From an uncultured Acidobacteriota bacterium (lineage in GTDB: Bacteria; Acidobacteriota; Thermoanaerobaculia; Multivoradales; UBA5704), in the NCBI GenBank assembly GCA_963770895.1, contig CAVYRF010000002.1, positions 4,608,001 through 4,672,000 of the forward strand: DNA of 64,000 nt, given 5' to 3'. Shown here piece after piece: positions 12,479 through 34,747 of this stretch. Under the pieces are notes generated by a model. That model ran no database searches. It saw only the letters and a program-made list of their open reading frames with translations, and had not been told where the DNA came from. The translations under genes were made by a program, and so were the position numbers. The stretch's first letter is position 1. Each line of letters opens with the position of its first letter.

Positions 12479-12506
12479 GCTGATTACGGTGTCCGATGTT
12501 TCGGAT

Positions 12507-12541: not shown

Positions 12542-12594
12542 CCTTCCAGGGCACCTTGAGGTAGTCGAGACGGGAATCCAACCGCGAAGGTTTA

Positions 12595-13059
12595 GTGACA
12601 AGACGTGCACGCACCCCTGGGGCCGCGTGCATAAGTGTTCGTGTCCGCTTACGAGGACGGAAGTCGAGTCCGCAGGGTTACCCGGAGGCACCCCGGACCA
12701 TTGGCGAGCATCTCCGGCGGGCGCGCCTTGACCGCGGCCTCGGCCAGAGACACGCGGCCCGCGAGATCGGCTGCTCGCAGGCGAGCCTCGCGAGTTGGGA
12801 GGCGGGGCGGGGCGCGCCGGGGCTGCGCTTCCTGCCCGGCATCCTGGCCTTCCTCGGGTACGACCCGCGGCCGGAGCCCGAAACCTTCGGCGGGCGGGTA
12901 AGGGCCGCGCGGGAGGGGAAGGGACTCTCCGCGGCAGCACTGGCCCGCCGGTTCGGTCTCGACCCATCGACCGTCTCTGCCTGGGAGCGCGACGAGATCA
13001 AACGGCCATGCCCCCGCATCCGGCGGGTCTTCGAGCGCTGGCTCGGAGGCGAGCCCTAG
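12595..13059 (+). CDS. Tandem double XRE-family helix-turn-helix domain spanning attL
   Basis: Two HTH_3-like units (IGEHLRRARLDRGLGQRHAAREIGCSQASLASWE; FGGRVRAAREGKGLSAAALARRFGLDPSTVSAWE). The track's GTG start at 12595 lies outside the element, left of the att core. Confidence 0.75.
   Translation: MTRRARTPGAACISVRVRLRGRKSSPQGYPEAPRTIGEHLRRARLDRGLGQRHAAREIGCSQASLASWEAGRGAPGLRFLPGILAFLGYDPRPEPETFGGRVRAAREGKGLSAAALARRFGLDPSTVSAWERDEIKRPCPRIRRVFERWLGGEP
12607..12641. other. attL site
   Basis: B arm gcacgcac, core with central TG (12618-12619), P' arm tgcataagtgttcg. Confidence 0.8.
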
Positions 13060-13247
13060 TCCTCCATCCCCAAGATTCGCCGGAGCCCTTCCCGGAGGAT
13101 CTCCGCCTCCGTGCGGCGCTCGGCGTAGGCCCTTTCCCGGAGCGCTTCGGCCTCGTCCGGGTGAAGCCAGACATTCTTGCGGATCATGCCCGTCTTCGAG
13201 ACCGTGGTTTCGCCGCCGCGCGGTCCGAGGCGCTTCTTCTCGTTCAT
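13056..13247 (-). CDS. Small ribbon-helix-helix (CopG-like) DNA-binding protein
   Basis: MNEKKRLG...RKNVWLHPDEAEALRERAYAERRTEAEILREGLRR shows a beta strand plus two helices. Its stop overlaps the HTH stop in the palindrome CTAG (13056-13059). Confidence 0.7.
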   Translation of the reverse strand: MNEKKRLGPRGGETTVSKTGMIRKNVWLHPDEAEALRERAYAERRTEAEILREGLRRILGMED

Positions 13248-13464
13248 CCCCAGAACATAGTGAAGCCCCACAAACCCATCGGCGCCGGCTTTCCGAGCTG
13301 CCCCTAGAGTTCCCGCGCGCGAGACGCAGGAATCCTCGCCCACCTGTTCAGGCTCGATCCGCCGCCGCAGTGCCTCGGGAGCGCGGCGCGATCCGGCGCT
13401 TCCATCGGTGCACCTGTTAGGGGTTCCGGGTGCTGCCTCGCCTCGCTCTGGTAGCCCCGCCCCG

Positions 13465-13650
13465 TTATTCCTCGTCGAGGCGACTGGTGTTTGCGGGCGA
13501 ACCTCTGACGGTCAGTAGGGTTGACGGTCTCGCTCCTTCGAGCGCCCGGCAGCCTGGGCAGATTCCGAGGTGGTGCGCCACCCGTTCCACCTCAGCGACT
13601 CTCGCCCCGGCCGTGCGCAGAAGTTCCGCCTCGGAGAGATGCGCTGTCAT
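13465..13650 (-). pseudogene. Truncated N-terminal fragment of an HxxxCxxC/TPR family gene
   Basis: MTAHLSEAELLR...EVERVAHHLGICPGCRA aligns by eye with PHVSKKDLLR...EVARLAAHLAGCAACRS of the 27640 protein, then similarity is lost. Confidence 0.6.
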
Positions 13651-13799
13651 TCTTTCTCGCTCTTAAATGCGAATGCCCGCCACGACATTTTAGGCTACCT
13701 CCAAGTACGAGTCACTGTAGATTGCCGAAGTTACGGAGAGGCTGCTTCGCACTTCGAGATGAAAGGCCGCGGGCCGTCCGTACCTACTAAAAATTTGGA

Positions 13800-13829
13800 T
13801 TGACGCAGCTGCGCTGATACCGGTAGGCT
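13800..13829 (+). promoter_or_regulatory. Candidate sigma70 promoter for the surface-protein operon
   Basis: TTGACG (13800-13805), 18-nt spacer, TAGGCT (13824-13829), with an A/T-rich UP-like tract upstream. Confidence 0.35.
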
Positions 13830-13960
13830 GTATTCAGTTTAGAGCTTCAGACGCCGGAATTAGCAAACGCGCGGGCGTGGCGCTTGACCGCTGCCGAGAA
13901 CGTACTTGGCGGCCAGCGCCAGATCGTCCGAGGTTTCTCACTGACTTGCCGGAGGTGGTA

Positions 13961-16900
13961 ATGCGGCACGTGGTTCGAGCGCCTGTGCGGTTCCGAATCG
14001 GTATATCGGGTGCGGCCCGAGCCGGCAGGAGGCTCGTTTTCGCAGCATGCTCCCTCGCAGCTCTGGCCACCACCGCGCTGGCCGCCCAGACCGTGACGCT
14101 TCAGGCGAGCGCCGACACCACTCTTAAGCAGGGCAGTCCTAACAAGAGCTTTGGCGGTGAGACGACCCTGACCATCAAGGAAGGCGGCAGCCGCGTGCTC
14201 CTCCGGTTCGACGGAGCCGCCATCGCTGCGACGGTGGGCAGCGACAGCCTGGCCTCGGCAGCACTTCAAGTCTACGTGGGCGCCAATGCAGCGAATTGGG
14301 GCGCCACGGGCCGCACCGTGGACATCTATCAGCTTACCTCAGCGTGGACGGAGGCTGGAGCGACCTGGAACTGCGCCGCCGATCCGAACCCTGGGCATGC
14401 CGGCGCCGGCTGCACGAGTCCCTGGTCCGGTGGCACCCCCGCACAGGGCGCCAACGGCGCGAGCGGCGACGGCGAGCCGACCGACACGGCGCTCATCACG
14501 AACGGCACAAGCGGCTGGGTGACGTTCGACGTGACCTCGGATGTCGCGGCGTTTCTCACCGGCACGCCGAATAACGGATGGCTTCTCCAGAAGACGGACG
14601 AGGGCCAGGCGGGTCGGATCGATCTGGTCTCGCGGGAAGGAACGGCGGGCCTCGCTCCGCGGCTCATCCTCGTGAGCCAAAGCGCCACCTCCGATGCGGT
14701 GCCGCCGTCACTCGCCATTGTTTCGCCGTCAGAGCCGGTCTTGGTGAACGTGCCCGCACCGGCGGTCGGCCTCGCCTATCAGGACCCCGGCTCGGGCGTC
14801 GACACCTCGACACTTCGAGTCGCAATCGACGGTCAGGATTTCAGCTCGGGATGCAGCATCGGAGCGCAGGCGGCGAGTTGTCAGGCGCCTGTGCTGGCTG
14901 CCGGCGCGCACACCATTACGGCGAGCCTGAAAGATCACGCGGGCAACCTCGCCACGGCCACGAGTAGCTTCCAGCTGCTCCTCGGTCCCGGCATCTCGAC
15001 CCTCACCTTCCCGGTGAGCACCGACACCTTCATCACCGCCAAGAGCCCCGACCGTGAGCACGGGCGCGCCGCCGTGCTGCGGGTCGAAAAGAGCGGCCCG
15101 AGCCGGGCGCTGGTCGGGTTCGACCCCGGAAGCCTCGCGGCCGCGGTGGCCGGGAACCAGGTGCTGGCGGCCCAGCTTCAGCTCGGCGTCGCCGCGAATG
15201 CCAAGAATTGGGGAAGTGCCGGGCGCACCATCGGCGCCTACCGGCTGACCACGGCCTGGTCCGAGGCGGCGGCCACCTGGGACTGCCCGGCCGATACCAA
15301 CTTGGACAATGCCACACCCGACTGCGCGGCACCGTGGAACGGCGGCTCGTTCGTGGCCGCGCCAACGGCAACGGCGCTCATCACGCGGCAGACGACAGGG
15401 AGCGTGAGCTTCGATGTGACCACCGATGTGACCGCCTTTCTCGCCGGCACCGCGAACGACGGATGGCTGATCGGGAAGACCGACGAAGGGCTCGCCGGGC
15501 GGATCGATTTCACCTCGCGCGAGGCGAGCTCCGGCCAAGCGGCGCAGCTCATCGTTCAGGTCCAGGTCCCGGCGCCGCTGCCAACGGTTGCAATCACCTC
15601 GCCGCTCGACGGCTCCTACTCGCGCACGGCGAACGTCCAGGTCACCGGGCAGGCGGGCGGCTCCGCGACCAGCGTGTCGGTGAACGGCCAGGTGGCAACG
15701 CTCGGTCAGGGCGGCACCTTTACCACGCAAGTCACCTTGATCCCAGGTGCGAACTCGATCGTCGCAGTCGCCTCCGACGCTGCCGGAAACCAGGCGACGG
15801 CCACGGTCAGCGTCATTCTCGACACCACGCCTCCGGCCGTGACGCTGACCTCGCCGCTGCCCGGAGCCATCACGAACCAGCCGCAGGTCGTGGTCTCCGG
15901 CACTGCGCTCGACGACAACGGCGTCGCCTCCCTCACGGTTGCCGGCCAGGCGGTTGCGCTCTCGGGCAGTCAGTTCTCAACCACGGTCCAGCTGGCTGCG
16001 GGATCGAACCCGATCACGGTCACCGCCACCGACTTGGCGGGCAACACAGAGACCGTCTCGGTCACCGTGACGCAGTTCAGCGTGCCGGTCGTCTCGATCA
16101 CGGCGCCGGCCGACCTGAGCTATGTGAACGCCACGACGGTTACCGTGAGCGGCACCGCCACCGGCGCCACGAGCCTCAGCGTGAACGGCGTGGCCGCGGT
16201 GCTCTCGGCCTCTGGCTTTACCGCCACCGGCGTGCCGCTCATCGAGGGCGGCAATACGCTGACCGCCACGGCTACCGACGGTCAGGGCCACGTGGGGATC
16301 GCAAGCATCAACGTAGTGCGCGACCTGACGCCGCCGCATGTCGCGATCTATACCCCGGCCGCCGGCGCCGCGATCACCGGCTCGTCGGTCACCGTGTCGG
16401 GCCTCGTGAACGACATCGTGGCCGGCACGGTGAACACGAGCAATGCGACGGTGACCGTGAACGGCATTCCGGCGACGGTCGCCAACCGCTCCTTTATAGT
16501 CCCCAATGTGCCGCTGCAACCGGGCAGCAATATCCTGACGGCCGTGGCGGTCGATGCCGCCGGCAACCAGGCACAGGCAACGGTCACGGTGCGCCAGATG
16601 ACCCCGGCCGGTGCGCGCATCGCGGTGGCGGCCGGCAACGGCCAGAGCGCGCCGATGGCGACGCCGTTGCCGCAGCCCCTGGTGGCCGTGCTGCTCGACG
16701 TTTCCGGGCAGCCGGTCGTGGGCCGGCAGGTGCTCTTTCAGGCCGTTGGCACCGACGGTACCTTCGACAACGGGCGGCGCACCTATGCCGTGACGAGCGA
16801 TGTTTCGGGCCAGGCCACGGTGCACTTTACGGTGGGAAGCCATGCCGGCGCTGGCAACCAGATGGTGAAGGCGTCGGCGCCCGGCTTCAGCGGGCCGGCG

Positions 16901-18565
16901 CAGTTCGTGGCCAGCGCGCAGCCGGGAACCCCGGCGCTCCTCGTGGTCGATTCGGGTGACCAGCAGCAGGGCGTCGCTGGCCAGGCCCTGCCGCTGCCCC
17001 TCGTGGCAGTCGTGGTCGATGCCGGCGGCAACCGTCTGGCCGGCGTCGCGGTGACGCTCAAGGTGGCGAAGGGGGCCGGCACCTTCACGAACGGCCAGCC
17101 GACGCTCTCCTTGGCATCCGATACCGACGGCCGGCTCATTGCCTCGTTCATCACCGATCCCGCGGAGGGAGTGGCCAATAACGTCGTGGAAGCGACGATT
17201 GACGCTCTGCCCGCCGGGCCGGTGGTGAGCTTCACCGCCTCCGCGCTCGCAGCCTACGACCCGGCGCTCACCGCGATCAGCGGCGTCGTGCTCGACAACA
17301 GCAACCAGCCGGTGCCGGGAGCCACCCTCCGCATCCTCGGCACGGCGCTCACTACCGAGAGCGACCCGCAGGGCCTCTTCCAGCTCACAGCAGTACCCGC
17401 CGGCACGCTCCAACTCGTCGTGGACGGCACGACCGTCCAGCGTCCCGGCTCCTGGCCACAGCTGGAGTTCAACCTGACCCCCGTACCCGGCCGTAACAAC
17501 TCTCTCCGCATGCCCGTCTACCTGCTACCGCTGAACCTCGAAAACGGCATCGTCGTGGACGAGACGCACGGCGGCACGCTGACGCTGCCGGAGTTGCCGG
17601 GCTTCGCCCTCACTGTCCAGCCGGGATCGGTCACCTATCCCGGCGGGGGCAGGAGCGGCACCGTGAGCGTGACCGTGGTGCACAGCGACAAGGTGCCGAT
17701 GGTGCCGAACTTCGGCCAACAGCCGCGCCTCATCGTCACCATTCAGCCGGCGGGAGCGCAGTTCAATCCGCCCGCGACGATCAGCATGCCGAACGTCGAG
17801 GGATTACCGGCCGGCAAGATCACCGAGTTCTACTCCTTCGACCACGACCTCGGCCACTTCGTGAGCATCGGCCCCGGCACCGTGAGCGACGATGGCACGG
17901 TCATTACCTCGAACGCGGGGGTCGGCATCGTCAAAGCCGGATGGCACTGCGATGGCTCCCCGCAGGCTGCCGGCTCGCCGAATGCCTGTCCAACCTGCAC
18001 GCAATGCACAGGTAGCCAGTGCGCTCCCCAACCGCTCTGCCAGGCTTGTGGATCTAATGGTTCGCAGATGGCTTGCGACGGACAGGGGAGCTGCGATACC
18101 GGGCTTCAGTTGCTTCCTCAGATTTGCAGCCAGGTCAGCATGATCTCGTCTCAGCAGCAAAGCGTCCCCTGTAGCGCATATACAGGCGCCGTACCAGGAT
18201 CAACTTGTGGCGCTGGCATACAGATTCTCTATCAAACCCTCAAGGTGGCAAACTGCAATGGCGTAGATCTCGCCGGAGCAACTGTTCACGAAATTGTCAC
18301 AAGCGACCAAGGCTGCACTCGCCAAAAGCTAAATACAGGCTCGTGCACCGTCTCGGCGGGCAACCACATTGGCCAACCTGGGCATGATTGCCAGGACAAT
18401 TACTTCCTTTGCACTCCGCCCGGCGGATTCACGAGAACGGGGAGTTGCACGCAACACTACACCCAACAGATTTACGTTGGACCGTGTCTCGTGGAGACGC
18501 ATCTGATCACCATCCACTTCGAGGCTAGCCCTACCGGTTGCAGTGCTACGGCAACGAGGAATTGA
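13961..18565 (+). CDS. Giant secreted protein: two DNRLRE-like domains, Ig-like repeats, carboxypeptidase-regulatory-like domain, Cys-rich variable C-terminus
   Basis: RBS GGAGGT before ATG 13961; signal peptide; two repeats of DT...R.L..FD...W.E..ATW.C...FDVT.DV.AFL.G..N.GWL..KTDE...SRE; many D.AGN/DTTPP Ig repeats; about 20 Cys after KAGWH. Confidence 0.85.
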   Translation: MRHVVRAPVRFRIGISGAARAGRRLVFAACSLAALATTALAAQTVTLQASADTTLKQGSPNKSFGGETTLTIKEGGSRVLLRFDGAAIAATVGSDSLASAALQVYVGANAANWGATGRTVDIYQLTSAWTEAGATWNCAADPNPGHAGAGCTSPWSGGTPAQGANGASGDGEPTDTALITNGTSGWVTFDVTSDVAAFLTGTPNNGWLLQKTDEGQAGRIDLVSREGTAGLAPRLILVSQSATSDAVPPSLAIVSPSEPVLVNVPAPAVGLAYQDPGSGVDTSTLRVAIDGQDFSSGCSIGAQAASCQAPVLAAGAHTITASLKDHAGNLATATSSFQLLLGPGISTLTFPVSTDTFITAKSPDREHGRAAVLRVEKSGPSRALVGFDPGSLAAAVAGNQVLAAQLQLGVAANAKNWGSAGRTIGAYRLTTAWSEAAATWDCPADTNLDNATPDCAAPWNGGSFVAAPTATALITRQTTGSVSFDVTTDVTAFLAGTANDGWLIGKTDEGLAGRIDFTSREASSGQAAQLIVQVQVPAPLPTVAITSPLDGSYSRTANVQVTGQAGGSATSVSVNGQVATLGQGGTFTTQVTLIPGANSIVAVASDAAGNQATATVSVILDTTPPAVTLTSPLPGAITNQPQVVVSGTALDDNGVASLTVAGQAVALSGSQFSTTVQLAAGSNPITVTATDLAGNTETVSVTVTQFSVPVVSITAPADLSYVNATTVTVSGTATGATSLSVNGVAAVLSASGFTATGVPLIEGGNTLTATATDGQGHVGIASINVVRDLTPPHVAIYTPAAGAAITGSSVTVSGLVNDIVAGTVNTSNATVTVNGIPATVANRSFIVPNVPLQPGSNILTAVAVDAAGNQAQATVTVRQMTPAGARIAVAAGNGQSAPMATPLPQPLVAVLLDVSGQPVVGRQVLFQAVGTDGTFDNGRRTYAVTSDVSGQATVHFTVGSHAGAGNQMVKASAPGFSGPAQFVASAQPGTPALLVVDSGDQQQGVAGQALPLPLVAVVVDAGGNRLAGVAVTLKVAKGAGTFTNGQPTLSLASDTDGRLIASFITDPAEGVANNVVEATIDALPAGPVVSFTASALAAYDPALTAISGVVLDNSNQPVPGATLRILGTALTTESDPQGLFQLTAVPAGTLQLVVDGTTVQRPGSWPQLEFNLTPVPGRNNSLRMPVYLLPLNLENGIVVDETHGGTLTLPELPGFALTVQPGSVTYPGGGRSGTVSVTVVHSDKVPMVPNFGQQPRLIVTIQPAGAQFNPPATISMPNVEGLPAGKITEFYSFDHDLGHFVSIGPGTVSDDGTVITSNAGVGIVKAGWHCDGSPQAAGSPNACPTCTQCTGSQCAPQPLCQACGSNGSQMACDGQGSCDTGLQLLPQICSQVSMISSQQQSVPCSAYTGAVPGSTCGAGIQILYQTLKVANCNGVDLAGATVHEIVTSDQGCTRQKLNTGSCTVSAGNHIGQPGHDCQDNYFLCTPPGGFTRTGSCTQHYTQQIYVGPCLVETHLITIHFEASPTGCSATATRN

Positions 18566-18568
18566 GCT

Positions 18569-19567
18569 ATGTGCACTTTGCGAGTCGGCTGCCTATTCGT
18601 GCTTGTGCTACTGCTTCATCTGGATGAGGCGGCAGCGATGCATGAGGTACCAAGTCCACCAGCAGGCCAACCCACGAACTGCAATTGGGTGGCGCTCTCT
18701 GCCGACAACCTTCTTGGTCAGCGCCTTGGCACGATCGAGCTTCGCGACGGCGATCTGACCGCGGTATTCGAGCATATCCTTAGCGATCGCGGTGTGCCAG
18801 TGTCCTATATCGAGGCTGAGGATCACCCGCCTATCACACTACGGCTGACAAACCCAACTGTGCGGGAGCTCTTGGACGCTCTGATCTCACAATCGCCAAC
18901 GTACCGCTATGGATTCCTCCATCAGCATCTCGTCTTCTACCCTCGGGTGCCCCCCTACGAATCGCTGCTGGCAGGCATGGTCTTGCCTGCGCTACCGCGC
19001 TTAAGCGCTTCATATCGCATGGTCAAAGAGTTAAAAAAACGGTACAGTGAATTTGCAAAATTGCAGCCGCCGATTTTGGTCGGCGATCCGCAAGATTTTC
19101 TTTTCACTGACGGCGTCATCGTTACCAAGCCCACCAGCGTACTAGACGGTTTGGTACAACTGCTGGGTAATCGGCCATCAGCTTGTTTCAGCGTGACGCA
19201 TAAGAGGTGGACCGGGCTAAGCGTCTCTGAGGGGCTCAGTTATTTGGATCTCTTTTATGTGAGAGTGCTGGAGAAGGTGGAGGTTAAGCCGATCCTGACC
19301 TTGGTTCGCGCAGGAGACGTTATTCCTCTCTCGGTTCGGGCAACGTTTGTCGCCGGTGGCGAGCAGGATGTAACCTCTGCATCTTGTGGGACGACATACT
19401 ACGCTGCCTATCCAGAACGGACCGCGGTTGACGAGAAGGGCGTGATGCGGGCGCTCGCTCCTGGGAATGCGGTTATTGTCGTGAGAAACGAGATGGAGAC
19501 AATTAGCCTGCCATTCACCGTAGTGGCGGGAACGACGGCGACCGCACCGCACCCAGGGACTAAATGA
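18569..19567 (+). CDS. Secreted hypothetical protein with an STN-like region and a C-terminal Big_2 Ig-like domain
   Basis: Starts 3 nt after the upstream stop; signal peptide; PITLRLTNPTVRELLDALI; LSVRATF..G...DVT....GTTY.....VDEKG.MRAL..G; low GC. Confidence 0.7.
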   Translation: MCTLRVGCLFVLVLLLHLDEAAAMHEVPSPPAGQPTNCNWVALSADNLLGQRLGTIELRDGDLTAVFEHILSDRGVPVSYIEAEDHPPITLRLTNPTVRELLDALISQSPTYRYGFLHQHLVFYPRVPPYESLLAGMVLPALPRLSASYRMVKELKKRYSEFAKLQPPILVGDPQDFLFTDGVIVTKPTSVLDGLVQLLGNRPSACFSVTHKRWTGLSVSEGLSYLDLFYVRVLEKVEVKPILTLVRAGDVIPLSVRATFVAGGEQDVTSASCGTTYYAAYPERTAVDEKGVMRALAPGNAVIVVRNEMETISLPFTVVAGTTATAPHPGTK

Positions 19568-19593
19568 AAGCCTTACGGCTATAGCGTGAGCCT

Positions 19594-22500
19594 ATGAACC
19601 TTGCTCTCGATCGTACTCCGATGACTTCCCTCGCGCCGAACCATCGGCGCGCATTCTTCCTGCCCTTGCTGATCCATTTGCTCACGGCCGCGACATCCTT
19701 TGCCCAACTCGACCAAACCTGCACGGTAAGCGCCCTGAACCGGACGGCACAGGTGGATGCCAACGGCGTGTGGGTACTCACAAACGTGCCGGCAGGGACT
19801 GGCCAAGTGCGAGTGCGCGCAGCGTGCATGGCAAACGGCACGACCCGGTATGGGCAGTCGGACCTCTTCACGGTGCCGGTGAACGGCGCCATTCTGGTGA
19901 GCGATATTTCCTTCGCGAGCCAGGTACCGATTCCGTCGAGCCTGACGCTCACGGGACCGGGCTCGCCGCTGTCAGGTGCCGGCCAGCAGGCGCAGCTTTC
20001 GGCCATTGCGACCTACCCTGGCGGCACGACGGGTGACCTCACGCCCGGCAGCACGGGCACCGGGTACGTGTCGAGCAACCCGGCGGTGGTGAGCGTGGAT
20101 GCGAATGGAGCGGTGACGGCCATCGCCAGCGGCACGGTGGTGATCAGCGCATTGAACGAGGGTGTGCTTGGCGTGGTGCAGGTACAGGTGGTGCTTTCCG
20201 GCAGCACGGTGGGCGACGGCATCCCGGACGATTGGAAAGTGGCGCACGGACTCGATCCCAACGATCCATACTGCGCGTTGGAAGATCCCGACAACGACGG
20301 ACTGACTAACCTGGAGGAGTACCAGAACGGCACCGATCCGAACAACCCCGACACCGACGGCGACGGTCTGTCGGACGGCGACGAGGTGCACCTCTACCAT
20401 ACGAACCCGCTCCTATGGGACACGGATGGGGACGGGATCTCGGACGGGGTCGAGGTGAGGACGGGCAGCGATCCGCTCAACATCCACAGTTTCAACCTGG
20501 CGGCGGCGCTCTCTTCGATCACGGTCTCTCCGGGCGCGTTCACCTTGGTCTTCAACACGGTGAGCGGCCAGGCGTCGCGGCAGCTCGTGGCGACGGGCAA
20601 CGTCATCGACGGCCGCACCATCGATCTCTTTAATCCGCTCTACCAAACCCAGGTCGCATCGAGCAACCTCGCGGTCGCGAGCTTCGGAGTGCAACCGGGC
20701 CAGGTGTTCGCCGGGCAGAGCGGCACGGCGACGGTTACGGTGAGCAACAGCGGCTGGTCGGCGGCGTCCGCCGTGACGGTGACGACGTTCTCGCCCACGG
20801 CCCTGGCGTTCCTGCCGCTTCCCGGATTTCAGAATGCGGTGGAGGTGGCAGGCGACTTCGTATTCGTGGCCTCCGGTGGCTTCGGGCTTTCGGTCGTGGA
20901 TGTGACGAACCTGCAAGCGCCGGTCTTGATCGCTCAGGCGCCCACTCCGGGCAGTGCGAACGATGTGCGGGTCTCGGGCACCGTGGCGTATGTGGCCGAG
21001 GATGTCGGCCTGCAACTCATGGACGTGAGCGATCCGGCCCACCCGGCGCGGCTCGGCAGCCTGAACCTCCCCGATGGCGACCAGGTGCGCCTGGCGGTAG
21101 CCGGCAACCTGGTCTATCTCGCCGACATGAACTTCGGCCTGCACGTCGTGGATGTGACGAACCCCATGCAGCCGGTCGAGGTCGGCTCGCTCGCGCTCGG
21201 GGGCACGCCGCGGGCGGTCGGTCTCGGCGGCACCGGGCTCGGCGGGTTCGCTCTCAGCGGATCGTATGCGGTGGTCGCCTGCGGCGACGGGGGCGTGGCG
21301 GTGGTGGACGTGAGCGATCCGACGGCGCCGGCCCTCGTGGGCGCTACGCCGGAGGATGCCCCGCGCGCCGGCAGCGTAACGGTGCGCGGCCACTACGCCT
21401 ACGTTGCCGCCGGAGAGGAGGCGGTCTACGGCGGCCTGCACGTCGTGGAGCTTGCCGACCCGACGAACCCCGTCGAGGTGGGGGCGAGTGAGGATGACCT
21501 GGGGGTGACCCGTGCGGCGCTCCAAGACGGGTTTGCCCTGGGCGCGCAGTTCTTCCTGGCCGCGCAGGTGGCGATCTTCGATGTCAGCGCCGTTCCTCCG
21601 GTCTACACGGCGGTGCTCGACCTCTCGACCTTGCCCGGCGGCGAGGTGGTCGTCGCGCCGCGCGCCAATGACATCGCGGTGCGAAACGGCGCGGTCTTCC
21701 TGGCGGCCAACGGCCAGCAGCTGGGTGAGTTTGCGAGCTACGCGATCGAGCAGGGCGGCCTCTACACCGGCCTTTTCGAGCTGCCGAACGACGGCGACAC
21801 GACTCCGCCGACGGTGAGCCTCTCCTCGCCGGCGGCCGGGTCCTCGGTGATGGAGCGGCTGCCCGTGACGGTGACCGTGGCGGCGCAGGATGAGGTCTCG
21901 GTCACTTCGGTCGGCATCCTGGTCGACGGTGCTCTGGTCGAAACCCTATACAAGCCGCCGTACCAGGCGACTATTCACGTGCCGTCCGGTCAGCCGACCA
22001 TGACGCTCGGAGCGGTGGCGACGAACATCAGCGGCGTCCAGGCGACGGCCACGGAGACGCTCACCGTCCAGCCGTACCCCTTGCCGGTCGCCACCCTCCT
22101 CGCGCCCGCGCCCGGCCAGGTTCTGATCGACGGCACGCCGCTCACGATCGCGGTTGCGGCGAGCGACGCCGTGGCGGTCACTCGGGTCGAGGTCTATGTG
22201 AACGGCGCGCTCGTCGGCACGGCCTTGACGCCGCCGTACCTCTTTCAGGTCACGCTGCCGCGCGGCTCGGCGACGCTCGCGGTGACGGCGCTCGCATACA
22301 ACGCGCTGGGGCCGGGCGCGATGTCGGCGCCGGTCGCGGTGACGGTAGAGCCGGACGTGCCGCCCACGGTTGCGATCTTCTCGCCGGCCGACGGCGCGCA
22401 GGTGACCGAGGGAAGCGTGGTCTCGATCGTTGCAGGCGCAAGCGACCTGACCGGAATCGCGAGCGTGCTCTTCGAGCTTGACGGCGTCGAGTTCCAGGGC

Positions 22501-25244: not shown

Positions 25245-25311
25245 GAAGGTCCTGGCGCGGCAGCGCGCAAGGGTGTTGGAGGCAGCGGGGGTGGCCGGGC
25301 CTCGATGCGCC

Positions 25312-26706: not shown

Positions 26707-27278
26707 GGGTCGCGTCGGGCGCTGAGGCGTGGTCGCGGGGCTATCTCTCGGAAGTAGGTGTCGCGGTCGAGGCCATAGACGAGCATCTCCCGGCCGGCGT
26801 GATTGATGCCGCCTTCGAGCTGCTCGCCGATCCGCTCGACCACCCGAATCGAGGCGTGATTCGCCGGGTCCACGAGGCTGATGATGTGGTCCTTCCGTAG
26901 CACGTTGAAGGCAAACGCCATCGCCGCCCGCGCGCCCTCGCTCGCATAGCCCTTGCCCCAATGGCATCGCGCGAGATGCCCGCCCAACTCGAAGCCGGGC
27001 CAGGTCTCGGGCTCTGCAAAGCCGATCATGCCCGCGAAGCTGCCGCTTGCCGTCTCCTCCACGACCCACATGCCGGCTCCACCAAGCCACCAGTGCCCAT
27101 GGACGAAGGCCATGTGCCGCCATGCCCGGCCCCGGTCCCAGGTTTCGCCGTTCTGACCGATGAACCGGGTCACTTCCGGGTCGGCATACAGGGCAGCGTA
27201 GTCCTCGTAGTCGCTTCCGCGAAGCCCTCTGAGCCGCAGGCGCGCGGTCGTGAGGGTAGGTATCTCGGGTATGCCCAT
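26703..27278 (-). CDS. GNAT N-acetyltransferase (RimJ/RimL family)
   Basis: LTTARLRLR, ELGGHL...WGKGYASEGA, N.ASIRVVERIG; RBS GGAGG. Confidence 0.92.
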   Translation of the reverse strand: MGIPEIPTLTTARLRLRGLRGSDYEDYAALYADPEVTRFIGQNGETWDRGRAWRHMAFVHGHWWLGGAGMWVVEETASGSFAGMIGFAEPETWPGFELGGHLARCHWGKGYASEGARAAMAFAFNVLRKDHIISLVDPANHASIRVVERIGEQLEGGINHAGREMLVYGLDRDTYFREIAPRPRLSARRDP

Positions 27279-27419
27279 GGGTAAAAACCTCCTTCCAACC
27301 CCTTCATTAAATAAAGCAGCAGCTTGTCCTCAGCCTCCGACAGGCGGAGACTCCGGGCATAGGGACACCCTCCGCGGGCAACGACGCTCGCCGATCACCT
27401 GTCCCTGAAGGGAGAAGCC

Positions 27420-27515
27420 ATGCTTCGGCTGCTCTACCTGCTCATGTCCGTATTCGGCGTTTCCTCCACCCCCCCGGACCCTGACTACGGCGGGGGCTAC
27501 GACCCAAACGGCTAG
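27420..27515 (+). CDS. 31-aa small peptide MLRLLYLLMSVFGVSSTPPDPDYGGGYDPNG (below the ORF-track cutoff)
   Basis: RBS AAGGGAG just upstream; hydrophobic N-terminus, acidic/Gly C-terminus ending DPNG; strong hairpin immediately after the stop. Confidence 0.7.
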   Translation: MLRLLYLLMSVFGVSSTPPDPDYGGGYDPNG

Positions 27516-27524
27516 GGAGAGCCC

Positions 27525-27558
27525 CGGAAGGGGAGGTCTGTCGGCGCCTCCCCTTCCG
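27525..27558 (+). terminator. Hairpin (terminator or RNA stabiliser) after the small peptide
   Basis: cggaaggggagg / cctccccttccg, perfect 12-bp stem with a 10-nt loop; only a short T run follows. Confidence 0.6.
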
Positions 27559-27639
27559 TTCCCCCCAATGTACAGAGGCTCTTATTTTGAGTTACTCTAA
27601 AACCGCTGTTGGCCTAATTTGTTTTGGGAGAGAGGGAAC

Positions 27640-30081
27640 GTGCCGCACGTCTCGAAGAAAGATCTGCTGCGTGCAAGCGACGCCGGCCGGTCCGAGGTCG
27701 CACGGCTCGCCGCGCATCTGGCCGGATGCGCTGCGTGCCGGTCCCGCGCCTTGAGCCTTTTGCGGGACCGGGCGCTGCCCGCGAAGCGCCAAGTGCCCCT
27801 GCGGACCCTCCTTGAACTCGCCGCCTTCGAGGAGAGGGAGGCAGTCGAGCGGCTCCGCGTGCGGGCGGAGTTTGCGGCACTCCGCCGCCTTACGCGCGCC
27901 GCCCAAAAAGAGCGCCTTATTCTCTCCCGGCTATGTCACTCGCTCGCCTTCGTTGATGTGCTTCTTGCCGCGGTGCGCGCTCCGCACCCGCGGGAGGAAG
28001 CCGAGTTCCTTTCGGGCCTCGCGGTCCTTGCCGTACAGGGCATGAAGCACATCTCGGAGGCGTTTCGAAACGATCTCCTCTCGTCCATCTGGACAGAGAC
28101 CGCGAACAACCGCCGCGTGAACGGCGAGTGGAGCAACGCGCAGGTGGCCCTTGCGCGCGGCAAGACCAATCTTGACCGCGGGACCGGGAATCCCTCGATC
28201 CTGGCGCGATGGCTTTCTGTCGGCGCATCACTGCGCGCCGACCAAGGCGCGCGCGACGATGCCATGGCCCAACTTGACGAGTGCCGGCGAATCTGCGAGG
28301 CAGAACCCAATTGGCCGCTCGTGGCCCGCACCATGGTGCAGATGGCACACGTCATCGTGGATCGCGACCCGGACGCGAGTCTCGCTTTGCTCGACCGGGC
28401 TGGTGTCTACCTACCTCTGGAGGACGCGACGCTCCGATGGCTCGCGGAGAGTATCCGGGCGGAGAGCCTCATTATCCTTGGCCGCATCGAGGATGCCTTG
28501 GTTGTCTTCGACCGTGCCGAACGATTGCGTCCATTGCAGCAGCGGCGAAACGGCAAGCTCCGCTCCGTTTGGACCGCAGCCCGTCTCCTTGAGGCGCTCG
28601 GCTGCATGCGGGAGGCGGAAGGGCTCTTCGATGAAACTCTTGCAGGCGACCTTCACGAGGGGCTCCACAAGGATGCGCTTCTCGACATGGCCTATATCGT
28701 CGGCTTTCACGCCCGCTCCGGCAGACCGGAGCGGGCGGAAGAGATCGGCCTCCAGACCCTCGCCGAGATCGAGGAGCAAGGCACGGTGCTTCACGACCAG
28801 CTCCGGCGTGTACTCCGGGGATTTATCGATGCCGCGCGAGGACAAACGCTTGACCAGAACGTGCTCCGAGAGGTAGACGAATACCTCCGCGCGCATTGGA
28901 AGTACCCAGCGGCGGTCGATCCCGTCATTCCCACCGGAGAGAAGGTGCCCGTCTCTCCGGCTCCCGCCGCTGCTCTGGTAGACAAAGCACTCGTGGTGCC
29001 GCTCCTCATGCGGGCGCTCTGGTCCCGCATCCGCCGCGGAACGAGAAGAGTACAGCAGGCGCAGGTCGGTGCCTCGCCCGAGTGCCATACGAAAGAGTTT
29101 CTGGACCTGCTCTTGGGCGAGCTGGCTGCCACTGAGTCGCGGGACGAGGCGGAGTTCATCGCGCACCTGGCGCTCCGGGCCGTGGAGGAATCGGCCGAGC
29201 CGGCCGAGGCAAGAGAAGACTTCAGGGCACAGGTCTGGACCGAAATCGCGAACGTCCGCCGAATCGCCGCCGAGTGGAATCACGCGGAGACCGCACTTCA
29301 CCGAGCGCATGAGCACCTCGGCCGGGGTGCCGGGAGCCCGCTCCTCAAGGCGCGCGCGCAATCGGTTGCAGCATCCCTTCTCTTCGACCAGGGACGACGC
29401 GCACAAGCTGTTGCTGCCCTGGAAGAGTGCCTGAAGCTCTATGAAGATGCGAAGGCATGGCCTTTGGTTGCCCGCACTCTGGTCCAAACGGCGCACGCGC
29501 TCGTTGAGAACGCTCCCGAGTGCGCGCTCTCGGTCGCCGAAAAGGCGCTTCCATTCATACCGGCAGAGGATTCGGTGCTTCGGTGGCTTACCGAGAGTAT
29601 CCGTACCGAAAGCCTCATCGAGATGGGCGAAACCGGCCAGGCGCTTCAGGCGTTCCATCTCGCGGAGTCTTTGCGCGGCGGCCACGCGCGGCCGGACGCG
29701 GATCTCCGCAGCAACTACACCGCGGCCCGCCTGCTCGAAGCCCTCGGACGTTTCGACGAGGCGGAGCAACTTTTCGAGGCGGTGATTGCGGAAGCGTTCG
29801 ACCGGGAGGCGTACCGGGCGGCCTTCCTCGACACGCTCTATCTGTTTGGGCTTCACATTCGCCGGGAGGCCAGAGACAAGGCAGTCGCGCTTTGCCGCGC
29901 CGCGATCGCCCGGCTTGATGTCCCAGATGTGGGCCATGAGCAGCTTCGCGCCGTATGGATGGAACTGATGGACGCGGCCATGCTGCGAGCCATACGTCTT
30001 GAAGGGCTCGCCGAGGTGCGAGAGTTCCTCAAGGTGTACTGGAAATATCCTGCCTCGAAGCCTCCCAGGTTTTCCTTCTGA
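27640..30081 (+). CDS. Internally duplicated TPR-like protein with an N-terminal HxxxCxxC motif
   Basis: GTG 27640 with a GAGGG RBS; AHLAGCAAC; two homologous halves (WTE.AN.RR...EW, WPLVART.VQ.AH, LRWL.ESIR.ESLI, TAARLLEALG, WKYPA). Confidence 0.85.
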   Translation: MPHVSKKDLLRASDAGRSEVARLAAHLAGCAACRSRALSLLRDRALPAKRQVPLRTLLELAAFEEREAVERLRVRAEFAALRRLTRAAQKERLILSRLCHSLAFVDVLLAAVRAPHPREEAEFLSGLAVLAVQGMKHISEAFRNDLLSSIWTETANNRRVNGEWSNAQVALARGKTNLDRGTGNPSILARWLSVGASLRADQGARDDAMAQLDECRRICEAEPNWPLVARTMVQMAHVIVDRDPDASLALLDRAGVYLPLEDATLRWLAESIRAESLIILGRIEDALVVFDRAERLRPLQQRRNGKLRSVWTAARLLEALGCMREAEGLFDETLAGDLHEGLHKDALLDMAYIVGFHARSGRPERAEEIGLQTLAEIEEQGTVLHDQLRRVLRGFIDAARGQTLDQNVLREVDEYLRAHWKYPAAVDPVIPTGEKVPVSPAPAAALVDKALVVPLLMRALWSRIRRGTRRVQQAQVGASPECHTKEFLDLLLGELAATESRDEAEFIAHLALRAVEESAEPAEAREDFRAQVWTEIANVRRIAAEWNHAETALHRAHEHLGRGAGSPLLKARAQSVAASLLFDQGRRAQAVAALEECLKLYEDAKAWPLVARTLVQTAHALVENAPECALSVAEKALPFIPAEDSVLRWLTESIRTESLIEMGETGQALQAFHLAESLRGGHARPDADLRSNYTAARLLEALGRFDEAEQLFEAVIAEAFDREAYRAAFLDTLYLFGLHIRREARDKAVALCRAAIARLDVPDVGHEQLRAVWMELMDAAMLRAIRLEGLAEVREFLKVYWKYPASKPPRFSF

Positions 30082-30165
30082 CACCCACCATCGCAGCTCT
30101 GTATGAAAAGACCCCAAGCGCCTGGCTTGGGGTTGAAACATTGATCGAAGAGAAGAGAGCATCAG

Positions 30166-30525: not shown

Positions 30526-30589
30526 TGTATAGCTCGGAGATCTTGGGACTCGGGATAATGTAGGCCGAGAAGGCCTGAGGAGACCGGAG

Positions 30590-30898
30590 ATGCCCAGGAA
30601 GAGCGACCGTAAGCCGGAAGAGCGGGTGGAGGTGGTACTGGCGTTGTTGAGGCGCGAGGAGTCAGCGGCGGCGCTGGCGCGGCGGTACCAGGTCAGCGAG
30701 GCGACGATCTACCGCTGGCGGGACCAGTTCGTGGCGGCGGGCACGGCGGGCGTGGCAAAGCCAGACGGCGCCGGCGACCAGGCGTCAGCGCGCCGGATCG
30801 AGCAGCTCGAGCGGGAAGTGGACAAGCGCTCGCAGATCATCGGTGAGTTGTCGATCGCCAACGGCATTTTAAAAAAACTTCAAACTCGTTTGTCGTGA
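30590..30898 (+). CDS. IS3 transposase OrfA (HTH + leucine zipper)
   Basis: SAAALARRYQVSEATIYRWRDQF HTH; coiled-coil C-terminus; slippery TTTTAAAAAAAC at 30867-30878. Confidence 0.9.
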   Translation: MPRKSDRKPEERVEVVLALLRREESAAALARRYQVSEATIYRWRDQFVAAGTAGVAKPDGAGDQASARRIEQLEREVDKRSQIIGELSIANGILKKLQTRLS

Positions 30899-31887
30899 CC
30901 GAAGAGCTCAGAGTCATGATCCGCGATGCGGTTAAGGTTCAGGCGAAAGCGCGGCTCAAGGCCGTCGTTCGCGCTTTGGGGTTGCCTTGTTCGAGCTTCT
31001 TTCGGCGGCCTGTCGCGTCGTCTCGTCGTCGCCCAGGACCAGCACCGCGTCCGCTCGATCCAGAACGTAGCTCGGTCGTCCGGAGCTTCGCTCTGCTGTA
31101 TCCCTGGTGGGGTTACAAGCGGCTGGCCGTGGTGCTGAGACGTGCCGGCGAGGCGGTCACGAATCGCTTTGTCTACCGGGTTCTGAAGGCTGCGGACCTA
31201 CTCATCCGCAAGCGCAGCCGAAACGCCGAGCTCTACCAGGCGGCCCGGCTCTTCGAGTTGTTGCCGCAAGGCCCGAACGAGTTGTGGCAGGCCGACGTGA
31301 CGTACATTCACATCCCAGGGCACGGCTGGTGGTACGCGGTCACAGTCATCGACTACTACAGTCGCTACTTGCTGGCAATGCACCTGTCGGCAAGCTTCGA
31401 CGCCTCGGCGCTGATCGTCGGCATTGATCGGGCCATCGCGGAAGCTGAGCGTCTTCACGGCCCTCTGCGGCGACGACCGACACTGGTCACTGACAACGGC
31501 ACGAGCTTCTTGTCGCGGCGCTTCCGAGGGCACATCGCCACGAGCCTGGATCACATGCGGACGCGCAACCGCACTCCCGAGCAGCTCGGACTGCTCGAGC
31601 GCTTCCACAGAACTCTCAAGGCCGAAGAGGTGCACTGGCAGCTCTACAGCTCGCCCCAGGAAGCAAGGGAGAAGCTTGAGGCCTTCCGCCAGAGGTACAA
31701 CGAGATCAGGCCGCACTGGGCTCTGGTGCCGCCTTCGTGCGTCGATCCCATCACGCCTGCCGAGGTCTACCGTGACGCCAAAGTCGTCCAATTACCGGCG
31801 TGGCAAGGTTGGGCCAGGGCTGCCAAGGAAAAGCTTGAAAAGCTCCAGGTAGGGCAACTACTGCAAGCGGAGGCGATCCCGGCCTGA
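30895..31887 (+). CDS. IS3 transposase OrfB (rve DDE catalytic domain)
   Basis: WGYKRL, NELWQADVTYI, VIDYYSRY, TDNGTSF, ERFHRTLKAE, YNEIRPH. The frame is open back to the slippery site. Confidence 0.92.
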   Translation: MTEELRVMIRDAVKVQAKARLKAVVRALGLPCSSFFRRPVASSRRRPGPAPRPLDPERSSVVRSFALLYPWWGYKRLAVVLRRAGEAVTNRFVYRVLKAADLLIRKRSRNAELYQAARLFELLPQGPNELWQADVTYIHIPGHGWWYAVTVIDYYSRYLLAMHLSASFDASALIVGIDRAIAEAERLHGPLRRRPTLVTDNGTSFLSRRFRGHIATSLDHMRTRNRTPEQLGLLERFHRTLKAEEVHWQLYSSPQEAREKLEAFRQRYNEIRPHWALVPPSCVDPITPAEVYRDAKVVQLPAWQGWARAAKEKLEKLQVGQLLQAEAIPA

Positions 31888-31951
31888 CGGCCGGGTCCAA
31901 GCTCACACATAAATCGACCACTCGGGTCCACTTGATCTGCGAGCCAAGACA

Positions 31952-34360
31952 CAACTCCGGGCCTTCTTCCCCGAGGTCTCGATCGCGGCTGAGCCGGAGG
32001 GGCTGCGACAGGTATGGAAGAAGAACGAGAGCGAGACCATCCTTGTCCACTTCGGCCTGGCGCGCGAGTTCATGCTGCCCCTCGCTTCTTTCCGGTCCCT
32101 CGACCCCGATCCGCTCCTGCCGCTTTTCGGGGCGCTCGCCGAGCTTGAAGCCGGCGAAGCCGGCCTCGTGCAAGTCCTCTTTGAGCGAGTCCGCGAGCGG
32201 TGGGCCGAAAGCGTCATGCGCGCCGTCGTGACCGGGGGCGGCGAACCCTTCTTCGCCGACTATCCAGAACTCACGAAGGCTGCGCGGGAGAAAGTCTCCC
32301 GGCCCCTGTACGCCGTCTGCCTGCGGATAGCAGCGAAGAGCAGCGATGCGACCGGCGCTTGGCGGATCGTGCGCGATCTTGCCGGAGCAGTGACCCATTT
32401 CGGCGCTCCTGGCGGCAACGAGCTTCTCCCGCTCGCCTCCGAGGAGGGTGCCGACGCAACCGAGCAAATCTTCGAGAGGGTGAGCCGCCGGCCGGGCATG
32501 ATCGTAGGAAGCGATGAGCTGGCGGCCCTCGCGCACCTCCCGAGCGCCTCAGTGCGGGTGCCGAAATTCCTCCGGGAGATACGGCGCTCGAAAGCGGCGC
32601 CCGCTCTCTCCCAAGGCGCGGGGATTCTTCTTGGCGAGAACCTTCATCACGGCAAGACCCTTGCCGTGCGGCTGCCCAATGATCTCCGTCTCCGGCATCT
32701 CCATGTGATCGGCGCCTCGGGCTCCGGCAAGTCCACTCTTCTCATCGATCTCATCATGCAGGACATCGAAGAGGGCCGGGGCGTCGGCGTCCTCGACCCT
32801 CACGGCGATCTCGTGGATGAGATCGCAGGCCGCATCCAGAAGGCGCGACTTCAGGACGCCATCCTCTTCGACCCGGCGGACACTGCCTACCCGGTTGCCT
32901 GGAACATCCTCGAAGCGCACAGCGAGCTTGAGCGCACCCTCTTGTCCTCGGATCTCGTCGGCATCTTCCGCCGCTTCTCGACCTCCTGGGGCGACCAGAT
33001 GACCAGCGTTCTCGGGAACGCGGTCCTCGTGCTCCTGGAGAATCCCGGCTCGACCCTGCTTGACCTGCGCGAGTTCCTCGTGGATCGGCAGACCCGCGAG
33101 CGCTTGCTTGCCGCGGTCGATGATCCATACCTCCTCTCGTACTTCCGACACGAGTTCGCTCTCGCGGCCGGGAAGAGCGTGGGTGCGATCCTCACCCGGC
33201 TTGATGGCTTCCTGCGCAGCAAGACCGTGCGGCAGATCGTGGGCGCCAGGGAGAGCCGACTCAACCTGCGCACCGTCGTAGATCAAGGGCAGATTTTCCT
33301 GGCCCGGCTCTCCGAGGGCGCGATCGGCGAAGAGAACGCTGGGCTCTTGGGCTCCCTCCTCGTCTCCAAGTTCCACCAGATCACGATGAGCCGGCAGGAG
33401 GTGAAGCGGGAGGAACGCCGTGCCTTCTTCCTCTACGCCGCCGAATGCCAGGAGTTCGCAACGGCTTCCATGGCGCTCCTCCTTTCGGGAGCGAGGAAGT
33501 ACGGCCTGGGGCTCGTCCTCGCCCACCAAGACCTGCGCCAACTCGAAGCGAAGGCCCCGGAGGTTGCCTCCGCTCTCCTCGGAAACGCCGGTACGCGCAT
33601 CGCCTTCCGCGTCGGCGACCGGGATGCGAAGGCGCTCTCTGAGGGCCTATCCTTCTTCGGACCCGGTGACCTCATGAGTCTCAGGGTAGGGGAAGCCATC
33701 GCCCGGATCGACAACGCTCAAGGCGACTGCAACCTGAAGACGCAGCTTTTGCCGGCGGTGGCACCCGAGACGGCCGCCGAGCGGCGCGAGGCAATCACCG
33801 CCCTCTCGCGGGAGCGTTATGCCGTGCGGCGTGAAGAGCGGCCAAGAGCGGCCGAGCCCGCGGCAGAGGTAGCACGGCCGGCAGCTCCACGAGCGGAGAG
33901 GACGCCACCGCCGATCCCGATCCCACCAGCACCCGCCCCGCCGCAGCCGGCACCGGCCCGCGAGCGAACTCCGCCCATCGCTCCGGCGCCCCTCGGTCGT
34001 GGCGGACCGGAGCACCAGTACCTCCAAGAACTCGTAAAGCGGTGGGGAGAGGCCAAGGGCTATCGGGCGACGGTGGAAGAGCCCCTGCCCTCCGGCGGCC
34101 GGGTGGATGTGGCCCTGCGGCGAGAGGGACATTCCCTGGCCTGCGAGATCTCGGTCTCGACAGGGGCGGAGCACGAAACCGGGAACGTGAAAAAGTGCCT
34201 CCATGCTGGATTTGACGAGGTGATCCTTCTCTCCCTCAGTCGAGGTACACTCGGGAAGGTGCGGGGTGCGGTATATGCGGGATTGCCGGAGCAGGACCGG
34301 AGCCGCCTCCACTTCATGAGCCCGGAGGAGTTCTTCACCTTCCTCGATGCGCCGGCGCCG
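31952..34360 (+). pseudogene. 5'-truncated type IV coupling protein/TraD-HerA-like ATPase with a C-terminal PD-(D/E)xK-like domain
   Basis: Frame is open from the IS end (QLRAFFPE...HFGLAREFMLPL); Walker A GASGSGKST; LDPHGDL; Walker B reads FLYAAE instead of ..DE; ARKYGLGLVLAHQ; C-terminal VDVAL...ACEIS. Confidence 0.8.
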
Positions 34361-34666
34361 GCGGCGCGGCGCGAGGAGCTCGAAGCCGAGATCCCCCGGC
34401 TCCAAGGCGAGATCGACTTCCTCAAAATCCAGCATCTCTCCCAGGAAGAGGTCGTCACCGGAGCCCACGACCTCTACGAGCGCTGGGACGACCTATCCCA
34501 GGAAGACCGCCGCGGCGTCATCCAGGCCATCGTGGAGCGGGTGAGCGTTGGCAAAGACGAGATCGAGATCACCCTTGCCTGCCTTCCGAGGACCGCGGAA
34601 CACCCGCCGCCCCCGCCTCCTCTGAAGATTGCGAACACTTATGCATACAACCCTGGGGCCGCGTGC
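34361..34666 (+). pseudogene. Putative C-terminal remnant of a large serine recombinase, fused in frame to the ATPase remnant
   Basis: Coiled coil RREELEAEIPRLQGEIDFLKIQHLS, then LYERWDDLSQEDRRGVIQAIVERVSVGKDEIEITL, the pattern I recall for large serine recombinase tails; abuts attR. Confidence 0.65.
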
Positions 34667-34670: not shown

Positions 34671-34747
34671 CGTTCGGCAGTTCCGGCGGCAAGCATGTCG
34701 GCGGCCCGCTGCGCATCAAGGCGCCGCATCTGGCGAGGATGGAAGTC

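Follow-up and report, generated by a model that had tools for sequence, protein, structure and literature searches.

Among the described large serine recombinase (LSR) systems are phiC31, Bxb1, A118, SprA of SPbeta, Ccr of SCCmec and XisF of the fdxN element, and integrative mobilizable or conjugative elements that employ serine recombinases are represented by Tn5397 (TndX) and Tn4451 (TnpX). Two reports give the size of LSR attachment (att) sites and the requirement of excision for a directionality factor (PMC12286644, PMC1470463). In two further reports, the site lies within a gene: within the integrase open reading frame (ORF), which is split by integration into parts at the two element ends, for the "suicidal" tyrosine integrases of archaeal viruses and plasmids of the Sulfolobus spindle-shaped virus (SSV) type (PMC7253208), and inside a regulator gene for the integration-dependent immunity of mycobacteriophage BPs and its relatives, in which the free form and the integrated form encode different proteins (PMC4557955). 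Here, we analyzed a 64,000-nucleotide stretch from an uncultured Acidobacteriota bacterium (G000:C2:4608001-4672000), referred to as the window, and we consider it likely that positions 12619-34654 represent a decayed element that is no longer autonomous and belongs to a widespread family of LSR-integrated chromosomal elements. Its att pair is one more of the known LSR kind; what is unusual is the placement of attP inside a gene that joins an LSR to a helix-turn-helix (HTH) tail. The features that carry this reading are as follows.

12555..12619, plus strand: B half of attB with a flank of about 65 bp that is homologous at other attL-type sites (alignment, nhmmer and half-site search)
12595..13059, plus strand: left-end ORF with two XRE-type HTH domains (Pfam HTH_31 and HTH_3)
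12607..12641, plus strand: attL (B-TG-P'), central TG at 12618-12619
31952..34359, plus strand: remnant of a TraD/TrwB/HerA-like ATPase gene, codons ~148-950 of the 997 in a sibling copy (blastn, 92%; PF10412)
34359..34360, no strand: deletion junction (global alignment, junction sequences against the sibling)
34360..34654, plus strand: 3' remnant of the LSR gene, codons 409 to ~507, ending in the P arm (300/305 identity; tblastn)
34632..34666, plus strand: attR (P-TG-B'), central TG at 34654-34655

At the left junction, attL reads ...GTGCACGCACCCC-TG-GGGCCGCG-TGCATAAGTGTTCG... (T at 12618, G at 12619), and at the right junction attR reads CGAACACTTATGCA-TACAACCC-TG-GGGCCGCGTGC-GCAGCG... (T at 34654, G at 34655). 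The two junctions share a 16-bp direct repeat, CCCTGGGGCCGCGTGC, at 12615-12630 and 34651-34666, as well as a perfect inverted pair of 14-nt arms, CGAACACTTATGCA, at 34632-34645 (plus strand) and 12628-12641 (minus strand), both located 8 nt away from the central TG. With up to one mismatch allowed, the direct repeat and the arm each match twice in the window, against 0.03 and 0.01 expected matches, respectively, and two matches were reached in 0/100 shuffles for either. Throughout the genome (8,164,432 bp in three contigs, with a G+C content of ~71%), the arm occurs exactly five times, every time at an att-type site. Rebuilding the parental sites gives CGAACACTTATGCA-N8-TG-N8-TGCATAAGTGTTCG for attP and, from 12607-12619 and 34655-34666, the palindrome GCACGC-AC-CCC-TG-GGG-CC-GCGTGC for attB, or GCACGCACCCC-TG-GGGCCGCGTGC written as halves. 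These are sites of ~40-50 bp with inverted arms around a non-palindromic central dinucleotide, as is typical of LSRs. A previous sequence-only reading of this stretch had proposed the same att sequences, 14-bp arms symmetric about TG and attB palindrome, all of which we read identically. The symmetry does center on the TG, but sequence identity alone resolves the crossover only to cccTGggg, which is common to all four half-sites.

The identity of the enzyme behind these sites follows from a comparison of 11000-36500 with the rest of the genome by blastn, in which two segments match one other locus, a sibling copy 737 kb from the window element: 31952-34365 matches C2:5375638-5378054 with 92% identity, and 34356-34666 matches C2:5379513-5379823 with 98%. 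Global alignment of the two copies placed a deletion of 1,468 bp, corresponding to C2:5378049-5379516 of the sibling, between window positions 34359 and 34360; it removed the last 47 ATPase codons and LSR codons 1-408, while beyond this gap window and sibling agree at 300 of 305 positions. What is left of the recombinase matches residues 410-511 of the sibling LSR at 98% (tblastn). The sibling gene itself is intact (C2:5378291-5379850, 519 aa) and encodes both characteristic domains (PF00239, E 6e-31; PF07508, E 2e-21) together with RVST and CxC...CxxC motifs; its match to PHROG 95 (integrase) has an E value of 1e-111, and its best NCBIfam matches are CcrB, CcrC and XisF, all far under the cut-offs. 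Its last codons, ...LKIANTYAYNPG, are the P arm and the core, and its ORF stops 20 codons into the flank. The P arm of the window and the 305 nt inside it correspond to the part of this intact gene that encodes the C terminus of the LSR. The reciprocal pattern expected of hybrid attL and attR sites is also seen between copies: the window shares an identical P side with the sibling and an identical P' side with a further attL-type site, site C, while the outer halves differ, leaving the element-side halves constant and the host-side halves variable. High identity to the sibling ends directly past TG-GGG at attR, and identity to site C ends directly ahead of ccc-TG at attL.

Profile searches of the genome with PF00239 and PF07508 returned eight and seven matches, respectively, none of them within the window, which therefore holds no gene with the two domains that define an LSR and that the sibling gene carries. 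The earlier proposals that the sites are of the LSR type, that the catalytic gene has been lost, and that the cargo is stranded or needs a recombinase in trans are supported by these data, and a full-length recombinase matching the remnant, for which a search of the same genome had been suggested, does exist. The sibling LSR is this recombinase; its P arm and spacer are identical to those in the window, and it could act on the window att sites. The sibling locus also has an attL-type site of its own at C2:5357818, which is inverted relative to the sibling attR at C2:5379789, 21,971 bp apart (L036 and L037); recombination between these two sites would invert the segment, not excise it. The segment contains a second LSR (544 aa, minus strand), a primase, a Ser/Thr kinase-TPR protein, an ECF sigma factor and the ATPase-LSR module.

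Support for the rebuilt attP also comes from the reading frame that passes through it. The TG has the same codon phase at attL and attR, with T as the third base of one codon and G as the first base of the next, and the left-end HTH ORF is in frame with the LSR across attP from 12619 on; therefore, on a circle, the LSR frame would continue into the HTH ORF. The rebuilt fusion consists of LSR residues 1-507 and HTH ORF residues 9-154 (507 + 146) and is 653 aa long, and natural fused LSR-HTH homologues, onto which the two parts tile co-linearly, span 634-656 aa. One of them, an unbroken LSR-HTH ORF of 639 aa, is found at L057, a locus from a metagenome-assembled genome (MAG) with 38% G+C, on a contig in which no terminal overlap was found as a sign of circularity. 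A search with the tail of this protein listed five proteins, of which four are LSR-HTH fusions 634-647 aa in length. When the sibling LSR served as the query, the search retained 5,620 of 8,000 candidates at E<=1e-40; among its best 120 matches, six carry HTH domains (636-656 aa), and one, P0065, instead continues into Mg-chelatase C-terminal domains. On P0109, residue 500 of the sibling LSR falls at residue 489 and residue 16 of the window HTH ORF at residue 504, and the spacing of these two residues is 15 by either count. Furthermore, the genome contains a second, diverged pair, with an HTH module at C1:71823 (52% identical) and an LSR at C1:121880-123496 (69% identical), which shows the layout, orientation and codon phase of the window and has imperfect inverted arms of its own. 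Because the restored frame exists unbroken in relatives, the rebuilt attP can be checked without an empty site, and the circular permutation of the gene lends it independent support. The proposal of a 22-kb element bounded by a recoverable att pair is supported by the repeats, which exceed chance, by the sibling enzyme and by frame continuity.

With attP located in the linker between the recombinase and its DNA-binding tail, the free and integrated forms would therefore encode different proteins. In the integrated form, the tail of the recombinase would be flank-encoded (~12-20 residues), and the HTH domains would end up 22-50 kb off, behind the host flank, often without a start codon of their own. 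In the window, the sole ATG, GTG or TTG upstream of the HTH domains is the GTG at 12595, in the host flank, and the sister HTH module at site C has no start before codon 147. We tentatively suggest, as a possibility that falls somewhat short of even chances, that the full fusion is made only from the excised circle, and that integration, by circularly permuting the gene, acts as an integration-state sensor. The possible targets of such a sensor include re-integration, directionality and an immunity against sister elements. The portions of the literature that our search reached contain no description of an LSR with attP in an LSR-HTH fusion ORF, which is not proof of absence.

The sequences directly show the sites, the deletion, the sibling gene and the continuous frame with its co-linear tiling on fused homologues, and from these data we infer a past integration event, a possible present activity and a function of the HTH tail. 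The intact element would be a circle whose attP lies within one frame that begins with the LSR and closes with two XRE-type HTH domains at the C terminus. Exchange at the TG between this attP and a quasi-palindromic attB would insert the circle, placing the HTH ORF at the left end, behind the host flank, and the LSR at the right end, with its last codons running into the flank. Three losses would then have followed: the catalytic and DNA-binding domains of the LSR through the 1,468-bp deletion, the 5' part of the TraD/HerA-like ATPase gene beside an insertion sequence (IS) related to IS3, and the remaining family backbone, the interior now holding genes with chromosomal paralogues. The window copy would be immobile by itself; the sibling LSR might act on it in trans, and excision would require a directionality factor too.

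Compared with described systems, the locus shares with LSR systems the short att sites, imperfect inverted arms, non-palindromic central dinucleotide and hybrid attL and attR sites, as well as, in the sibling, an enzyme with resolvase and recombinase domains and the CxC...CxxC zinc motif. It departs from them in having attP inside the recombinase's own frame, where the LSR proper gives way to the double HTH of the C terminus, and in that the window copy has no recombinase gene. As in SSV-type integration, the recombination site lies in the integrase ORF and parts of the gene are found at both element ends. Unlike SSV-type integrases, which are archaeal tyrosine recombinases whose catalytic gene is broken, the enzyme here is a bacterial serine recombinase from which only the HTH tail is detached, leaving the catalytic part whole, and despite an attP in an ORF the element is thus not of the SSV type. 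BPs uses a tyrosine integrase, and the gene that spans its site encodes a separate repressor, whereas here the putative HTH regulator part is fused to the recombinase. With Tn5397 and Tn4451, the family shares an LSR at one end adjoined by a coupling-protein-like ATPase gene, but among the ORFs scanned we saw no relaxase, oriT or mating-pore genes. In contrast to LSR phages, the carrier showed no structural PHROGs among the ORFs scanned: among 13 proteins, no capsid, portal or tail families were found, the matches being to integrase, primase, RuvC-like and repressor-like proteins and one family of unknown function, and the only structural-category match was a weak one between the terminase large subunit and the ATPase (E 1.2e-05, 25 bits). 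The element is thus not classed as a prophage.

The att pair as such is ordinary, one more among thousands that are predictable by comparison; it looks orthogonal and comes with a natural enzyme in the same genome. Frame restoration, on the other hand, offers a way to validate att predictions family-wide, and the position of attP between recombinase and DNA-binding tail makes integration-state sensing by an LSR element testable. If true, such sensing would give the SSV "suicidal" integrases and integration-dependent immunity a counterpart among the serine recombinases of bacteria. The locus also displays a route of decay, by recombinase deletion, IS truncation and interior replacement, in which the scars are kept as predicted substrates for the enzyme of a sister copy, a scenario that would bear on the mobility of stranded islands.

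In other genomes, the family is found in hosts that include Acidobacteriota, Thermoanaerobaculia, Planctomycetota and Flavobacteriaceae MAGs. The ATPase gene lies directly upstream of the LSR gene, on the same strand, in 9 of 20 related loci (L043-L062), seven of which also have p233 and four p1138. No earlier description was found of this module of p233, the 997-aa ATPase and the LSR, with p1138 ahead in four loci. Downstream of the LSR, we scanned 89 open frames at 17 loci of relatives and observed the 3' part of a Mg-chelatase/comM-like gene in two (L054 and L061), the C terminus of a single-stranded DNA-binding protein in one (L059), a second LSR in one, MazE/PIN pairs in two and a fused HTH in one (L057). 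The genes found there thus show the LSR to be the outermost gene of integrated elements. We also considered whether the usual LSR target might be a host XRE gene, at its 5' end, and rejected this, as among these 17 loci an HTH follows the LSR only in L057, where it belongs to the same ORF. A tRNA target for integration was likewise set aside, with no tRNA or tmRNA genes found in the window. An LSR 95% identical to that of the sibling, P0006, is encoded on a 61,791-bp contig from the Joint Genome Institute (JGI).

Several observations weigh against a single integrated element, and they are best considered together with the alternatives that they favor. First, the flanks joined as an empty attB were not found by protein searches for the two flanking genes in 40 relatives or by DNA searches of both flanks in five relatives, which lack the entire surrounding region. 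Tblastx of the loci of eight relatives revealed no shared flank outside the gene to the right of the element, which encodes a PQQ-like protein, and the tail of G005 contig C672 is unrelated to the window. The gene to the left has a full-length homologue (64% identity) only in G005 among the 40 relatives, with partial matches (57-71%) in G015, G018 and G013. Moreover, G002 contig C50 joins homologues of 1415-5596 and 44532-45916 within 372 bp, and G005 contig C666 joins 234-1394 to 44519-45916 within 23 bp. The 22 kb are therefore nested in a variable region of 39-43 kb (~5600-44500), which shows no integrase of its own among the ORFs scanned. The sequence-only reading had itself named this outcome, no empty attB in relatives and synteny breaking off at other positions, as evidence against the element, and formally it is what we observed. 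However, these relatives belong to different species, with only 72-82% identity in the core genes of the flanks, and are therefore uninformative on a nested, recent insertion.

Exact-match scans of JGI metagenome contigs for a 30-nt left-flank string and a 24-nt P-arm string yielded 0 matches each, a further count against the element. Ten public runs match part of 11500-13700, all as Logan assembled contigs, in which joints of both ends are invisible for an element of more than 20 kb and uncovered parts carry no information. Among them, a 371-nt soil-metagenome contig spans attL (12418-12788) with zero differences, a point in favor of the element, and may stem from the source sample; one X3 contig tracks the left flank to 12632 before 37 unlike letters, which is a lead, not evidence.

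The content between the sites is the second point of concern, and the remaining features of the locus are as follows.

10490..12478, plus strand: left flanking gene, AlbA_2/HATPase_c_4 regulator-like, outside the element (PF13749, PF04326)
12615..13398, plus strand: left-end module, ~90-93% identical by blastn to the orphan attL-type modules C2:3487259-3487704 and C2:5356841-5357861
13525..25274, plus strand: gene cluster with three chromosomal paralogues, 77-92% identity (blastn, Pfam)
25312..30081, both strands: TPR protein (minus), GNAT acetyltransferase at 26703-27278 (minus) and TPR protein at 27619-30081 (plus) (Pfam)
30526..31963, plus strand: IS3-family element with orfA at 30590-30898 and orfB at 30895-31887 (Pfam HTH_Tnp_1, rve)
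34739..36613, plus strand: right flanking gene, PQQ-like beta-propeller, outside the element (Pfam; orthologues 57-73% identical)

Family backbone in the window is confined to the two end modules, 12615-13398 (0.8 kb) and 31952-34666 (2.7 kb), and ~18.5 of the 22 kb have no counterpart in the sibling interior. The sibling genes for the primase, p371, p1138 (PKD/He_PIG Ig-like domains) and p233 are all absent. The 11.7-kb cluster, which encodes a CBM96/Glucodextranase_B protein of 1562 aa, a 332-aa ORF, an LVIVD/Big_7 protein of 1347 aa and a PAP2-like ORF, has its three chromosomal paralogues far from any arm. The IS3-family element is 84% identical to C2:3302784-3304220 and abuts the shortened coupling-protein-like gene, which here lacks its first 147 codons in addition to those lost with the LSR. 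The complete sibling ATPase (997 aa) scores 54 bits with PF10412 (cut-off, 20.5) and far below all NCBIfam TraD/VirD4 cut-offs. Pfam scans of 26+21+19+9 ORFs, a part of all ORFs, found no relaxase or type IV secretion system families. The term "cargo" used in the sequence-only reading goes rather far; the interior is mostly non-backbone DNA and may stem from later rearrangement.

This composition favors a mosaic, in which an attL module and an LSR-remnant/attR module from two separate events of this multi-copy family have trapped 18.5 kb of ordinary chromosome between them; the 22-kb element with its cargo would then be an artefact of pairing two scars. Orphan attL-type modules do exist, at C2:3487661 and C2:5357818 and, in decayed form, at C1:1999636, and the sibling attL-type site is inverted relative to its attR; therefore, the pairing of the two window sites is not guaranteed. 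The cluster with its chromosomal paralogues, the missing backbone genes and the variability of the entire 5.6-44.5-kb region are equally in keeping with such an origin. However, the window sites are the genome's only W-type attL/attR pair that stands in direct orientation with matching TG polarity, and the order and orientation of the HTH end and the LSR end fit one integrated circle, as in the C1 pair. Inner B and B', moreover, mirror each other at 9/11 positions, and the IS3-like element at 30526-31963 provides a simple route to internal replacement. We therefore regard a mosaic as unlikely, if still the most serious competitor of a single decayed element.

The third concern is the right half of attB. 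Outer halves at five sites are alike: the TG is preceded by GTGCACGCAsCCC and leads into GGGnnnCGTGCAC, behind which a CTTTTGTGATCC-like stretch usually lies, giving the consensus-like form GTGCACGCAsCCC-TG-GGGsyGCGTGCAC. At C1:2002602-2002645, elsewhere in the genome, a paralogous B half is joined to a B' half as a long, unoccupied palindrome. In the window, the right half matches this consensus over 11 nt only (GGGCCGCGTGC), and these 11 nt are also identical to inner P'; therefore, the right junction could be a cut-down attP, that is, LSR-P-TG-P'-HTH cut 11 nt into P', with the true right host junction lost. The 16-bp repeat would then be shared inner P', the stretch past the TG at attR being the first 11 nt of P' at attL. 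Consistent with this alternative, the outer B' motif GTGCACCTTTTGTGATCC was not found in the window, and downstream of the LSR, both in relatives (P0017 and P0020) and in the C1 copy, an arm resembling P' and the decayed leader of an HTH gene are often present. Yet the same 11 nt are inner B' of the unoccupied palindrome at C1:2002617, an equal fit, and positions 12-13 (GC) are unlike both P' (AT) and B' (AC). The contrasting empty site in a sister strain would read ...CACCCC-TG-GGGCCGCGTGCGCAGCG.... On balance, we hold a truncated attP to be improbable.

Finally, the idea that the repeats arose by chance, or that they mark a transposon by its terminal inverted repeats and target site duplication, can be dismissed with near certainty: although a direct repeat beside inverted repeats has that appearance at first, neither repeat was reproduced in any of 100 shuffles, the direct repeat overlaps the left arm by 3 nt and lies 5 nt off the right arm, an asymmetry that does not suit an IS or transposon and fits a symmetric attP, the right arm is coding sequence of the LSR gene, and the sole transposase is that of the internal IS3-like element.

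Under the preferred reading of a single integrated and decayed element, the attB side invites comment on its origin. B-type half-sites are rare, being limited to six att-related places in five loci in addition to two four-mismatch chance matches, which led us to reject a widespread repeat of the repetitive extragenic palindromic type as the source of the B-type flank. Derivation of this flank from an LSR 3' end found no support past the ~30-nt arm. The outer flanks of sites A and C, as well as the sequence downstream of the LSR at L044, contain a decayed "leader + TLGEHLK*" start of an HTH gene. Unlike the attB sites of known LSR systems, those of this family in this genome often look like relics of older att-HTH modules, and elements may accumulate where others have left their scars. 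Orphan HTH modules and att-like half-sites, with two arm types, are clustered within a few kilobases at C2:3481504, 3487661 and 3492523 and at C1:1999636 and 2002602, as though the same spots had been used for integration again and again and had decayed. At the two orphan attL loci (the sibling locus and the site A locus), a 1.4-kb DUF4143/AAA_14 ATPase segment is 99.6% identical between C2:5355350-5356752 and C2:3487864-3489267 and lies in opposite orientation relative to the HTH module, which suggests a recent duplication or inversion.

With respect to the surroundings of the right junction, the frame of the PQQ-like protein opens with ATG 34739, and its orthologues begin to align at residues 11-38. 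A 1513-aa ORF (32072-36613, plus strand) is an artefact in which the remnants of the ATPase and LSR genes, attR and this PQQ-like gene happen to share one frame, and automatic annotation would probably call a chimeric protein there. Further to the right, within the variable region, a patch of 57-63% G+C encodes a 1026-aa protein with Mrr_cat restriction-endonuclease and NACHT domains (39139-42219, minus strand), which looks defense-like. Elsewhere in the genome, L038 (C2:5391000-5400000) contains ORFs of ~1,170 aa whose paralogues, 65-70% identical in nucleotide sequence, number in the hundreds across the genome; the one ORF scanned had no Pfam match at 1e-5. Lastly, three LSR genes in 759-codon frames, at C1:1496435 (minus strand), C2:764394 (plus strand) and C2:3311949 (minus strand), have identical domain scores and suggest a separate, probably active multi-copy LSR element.

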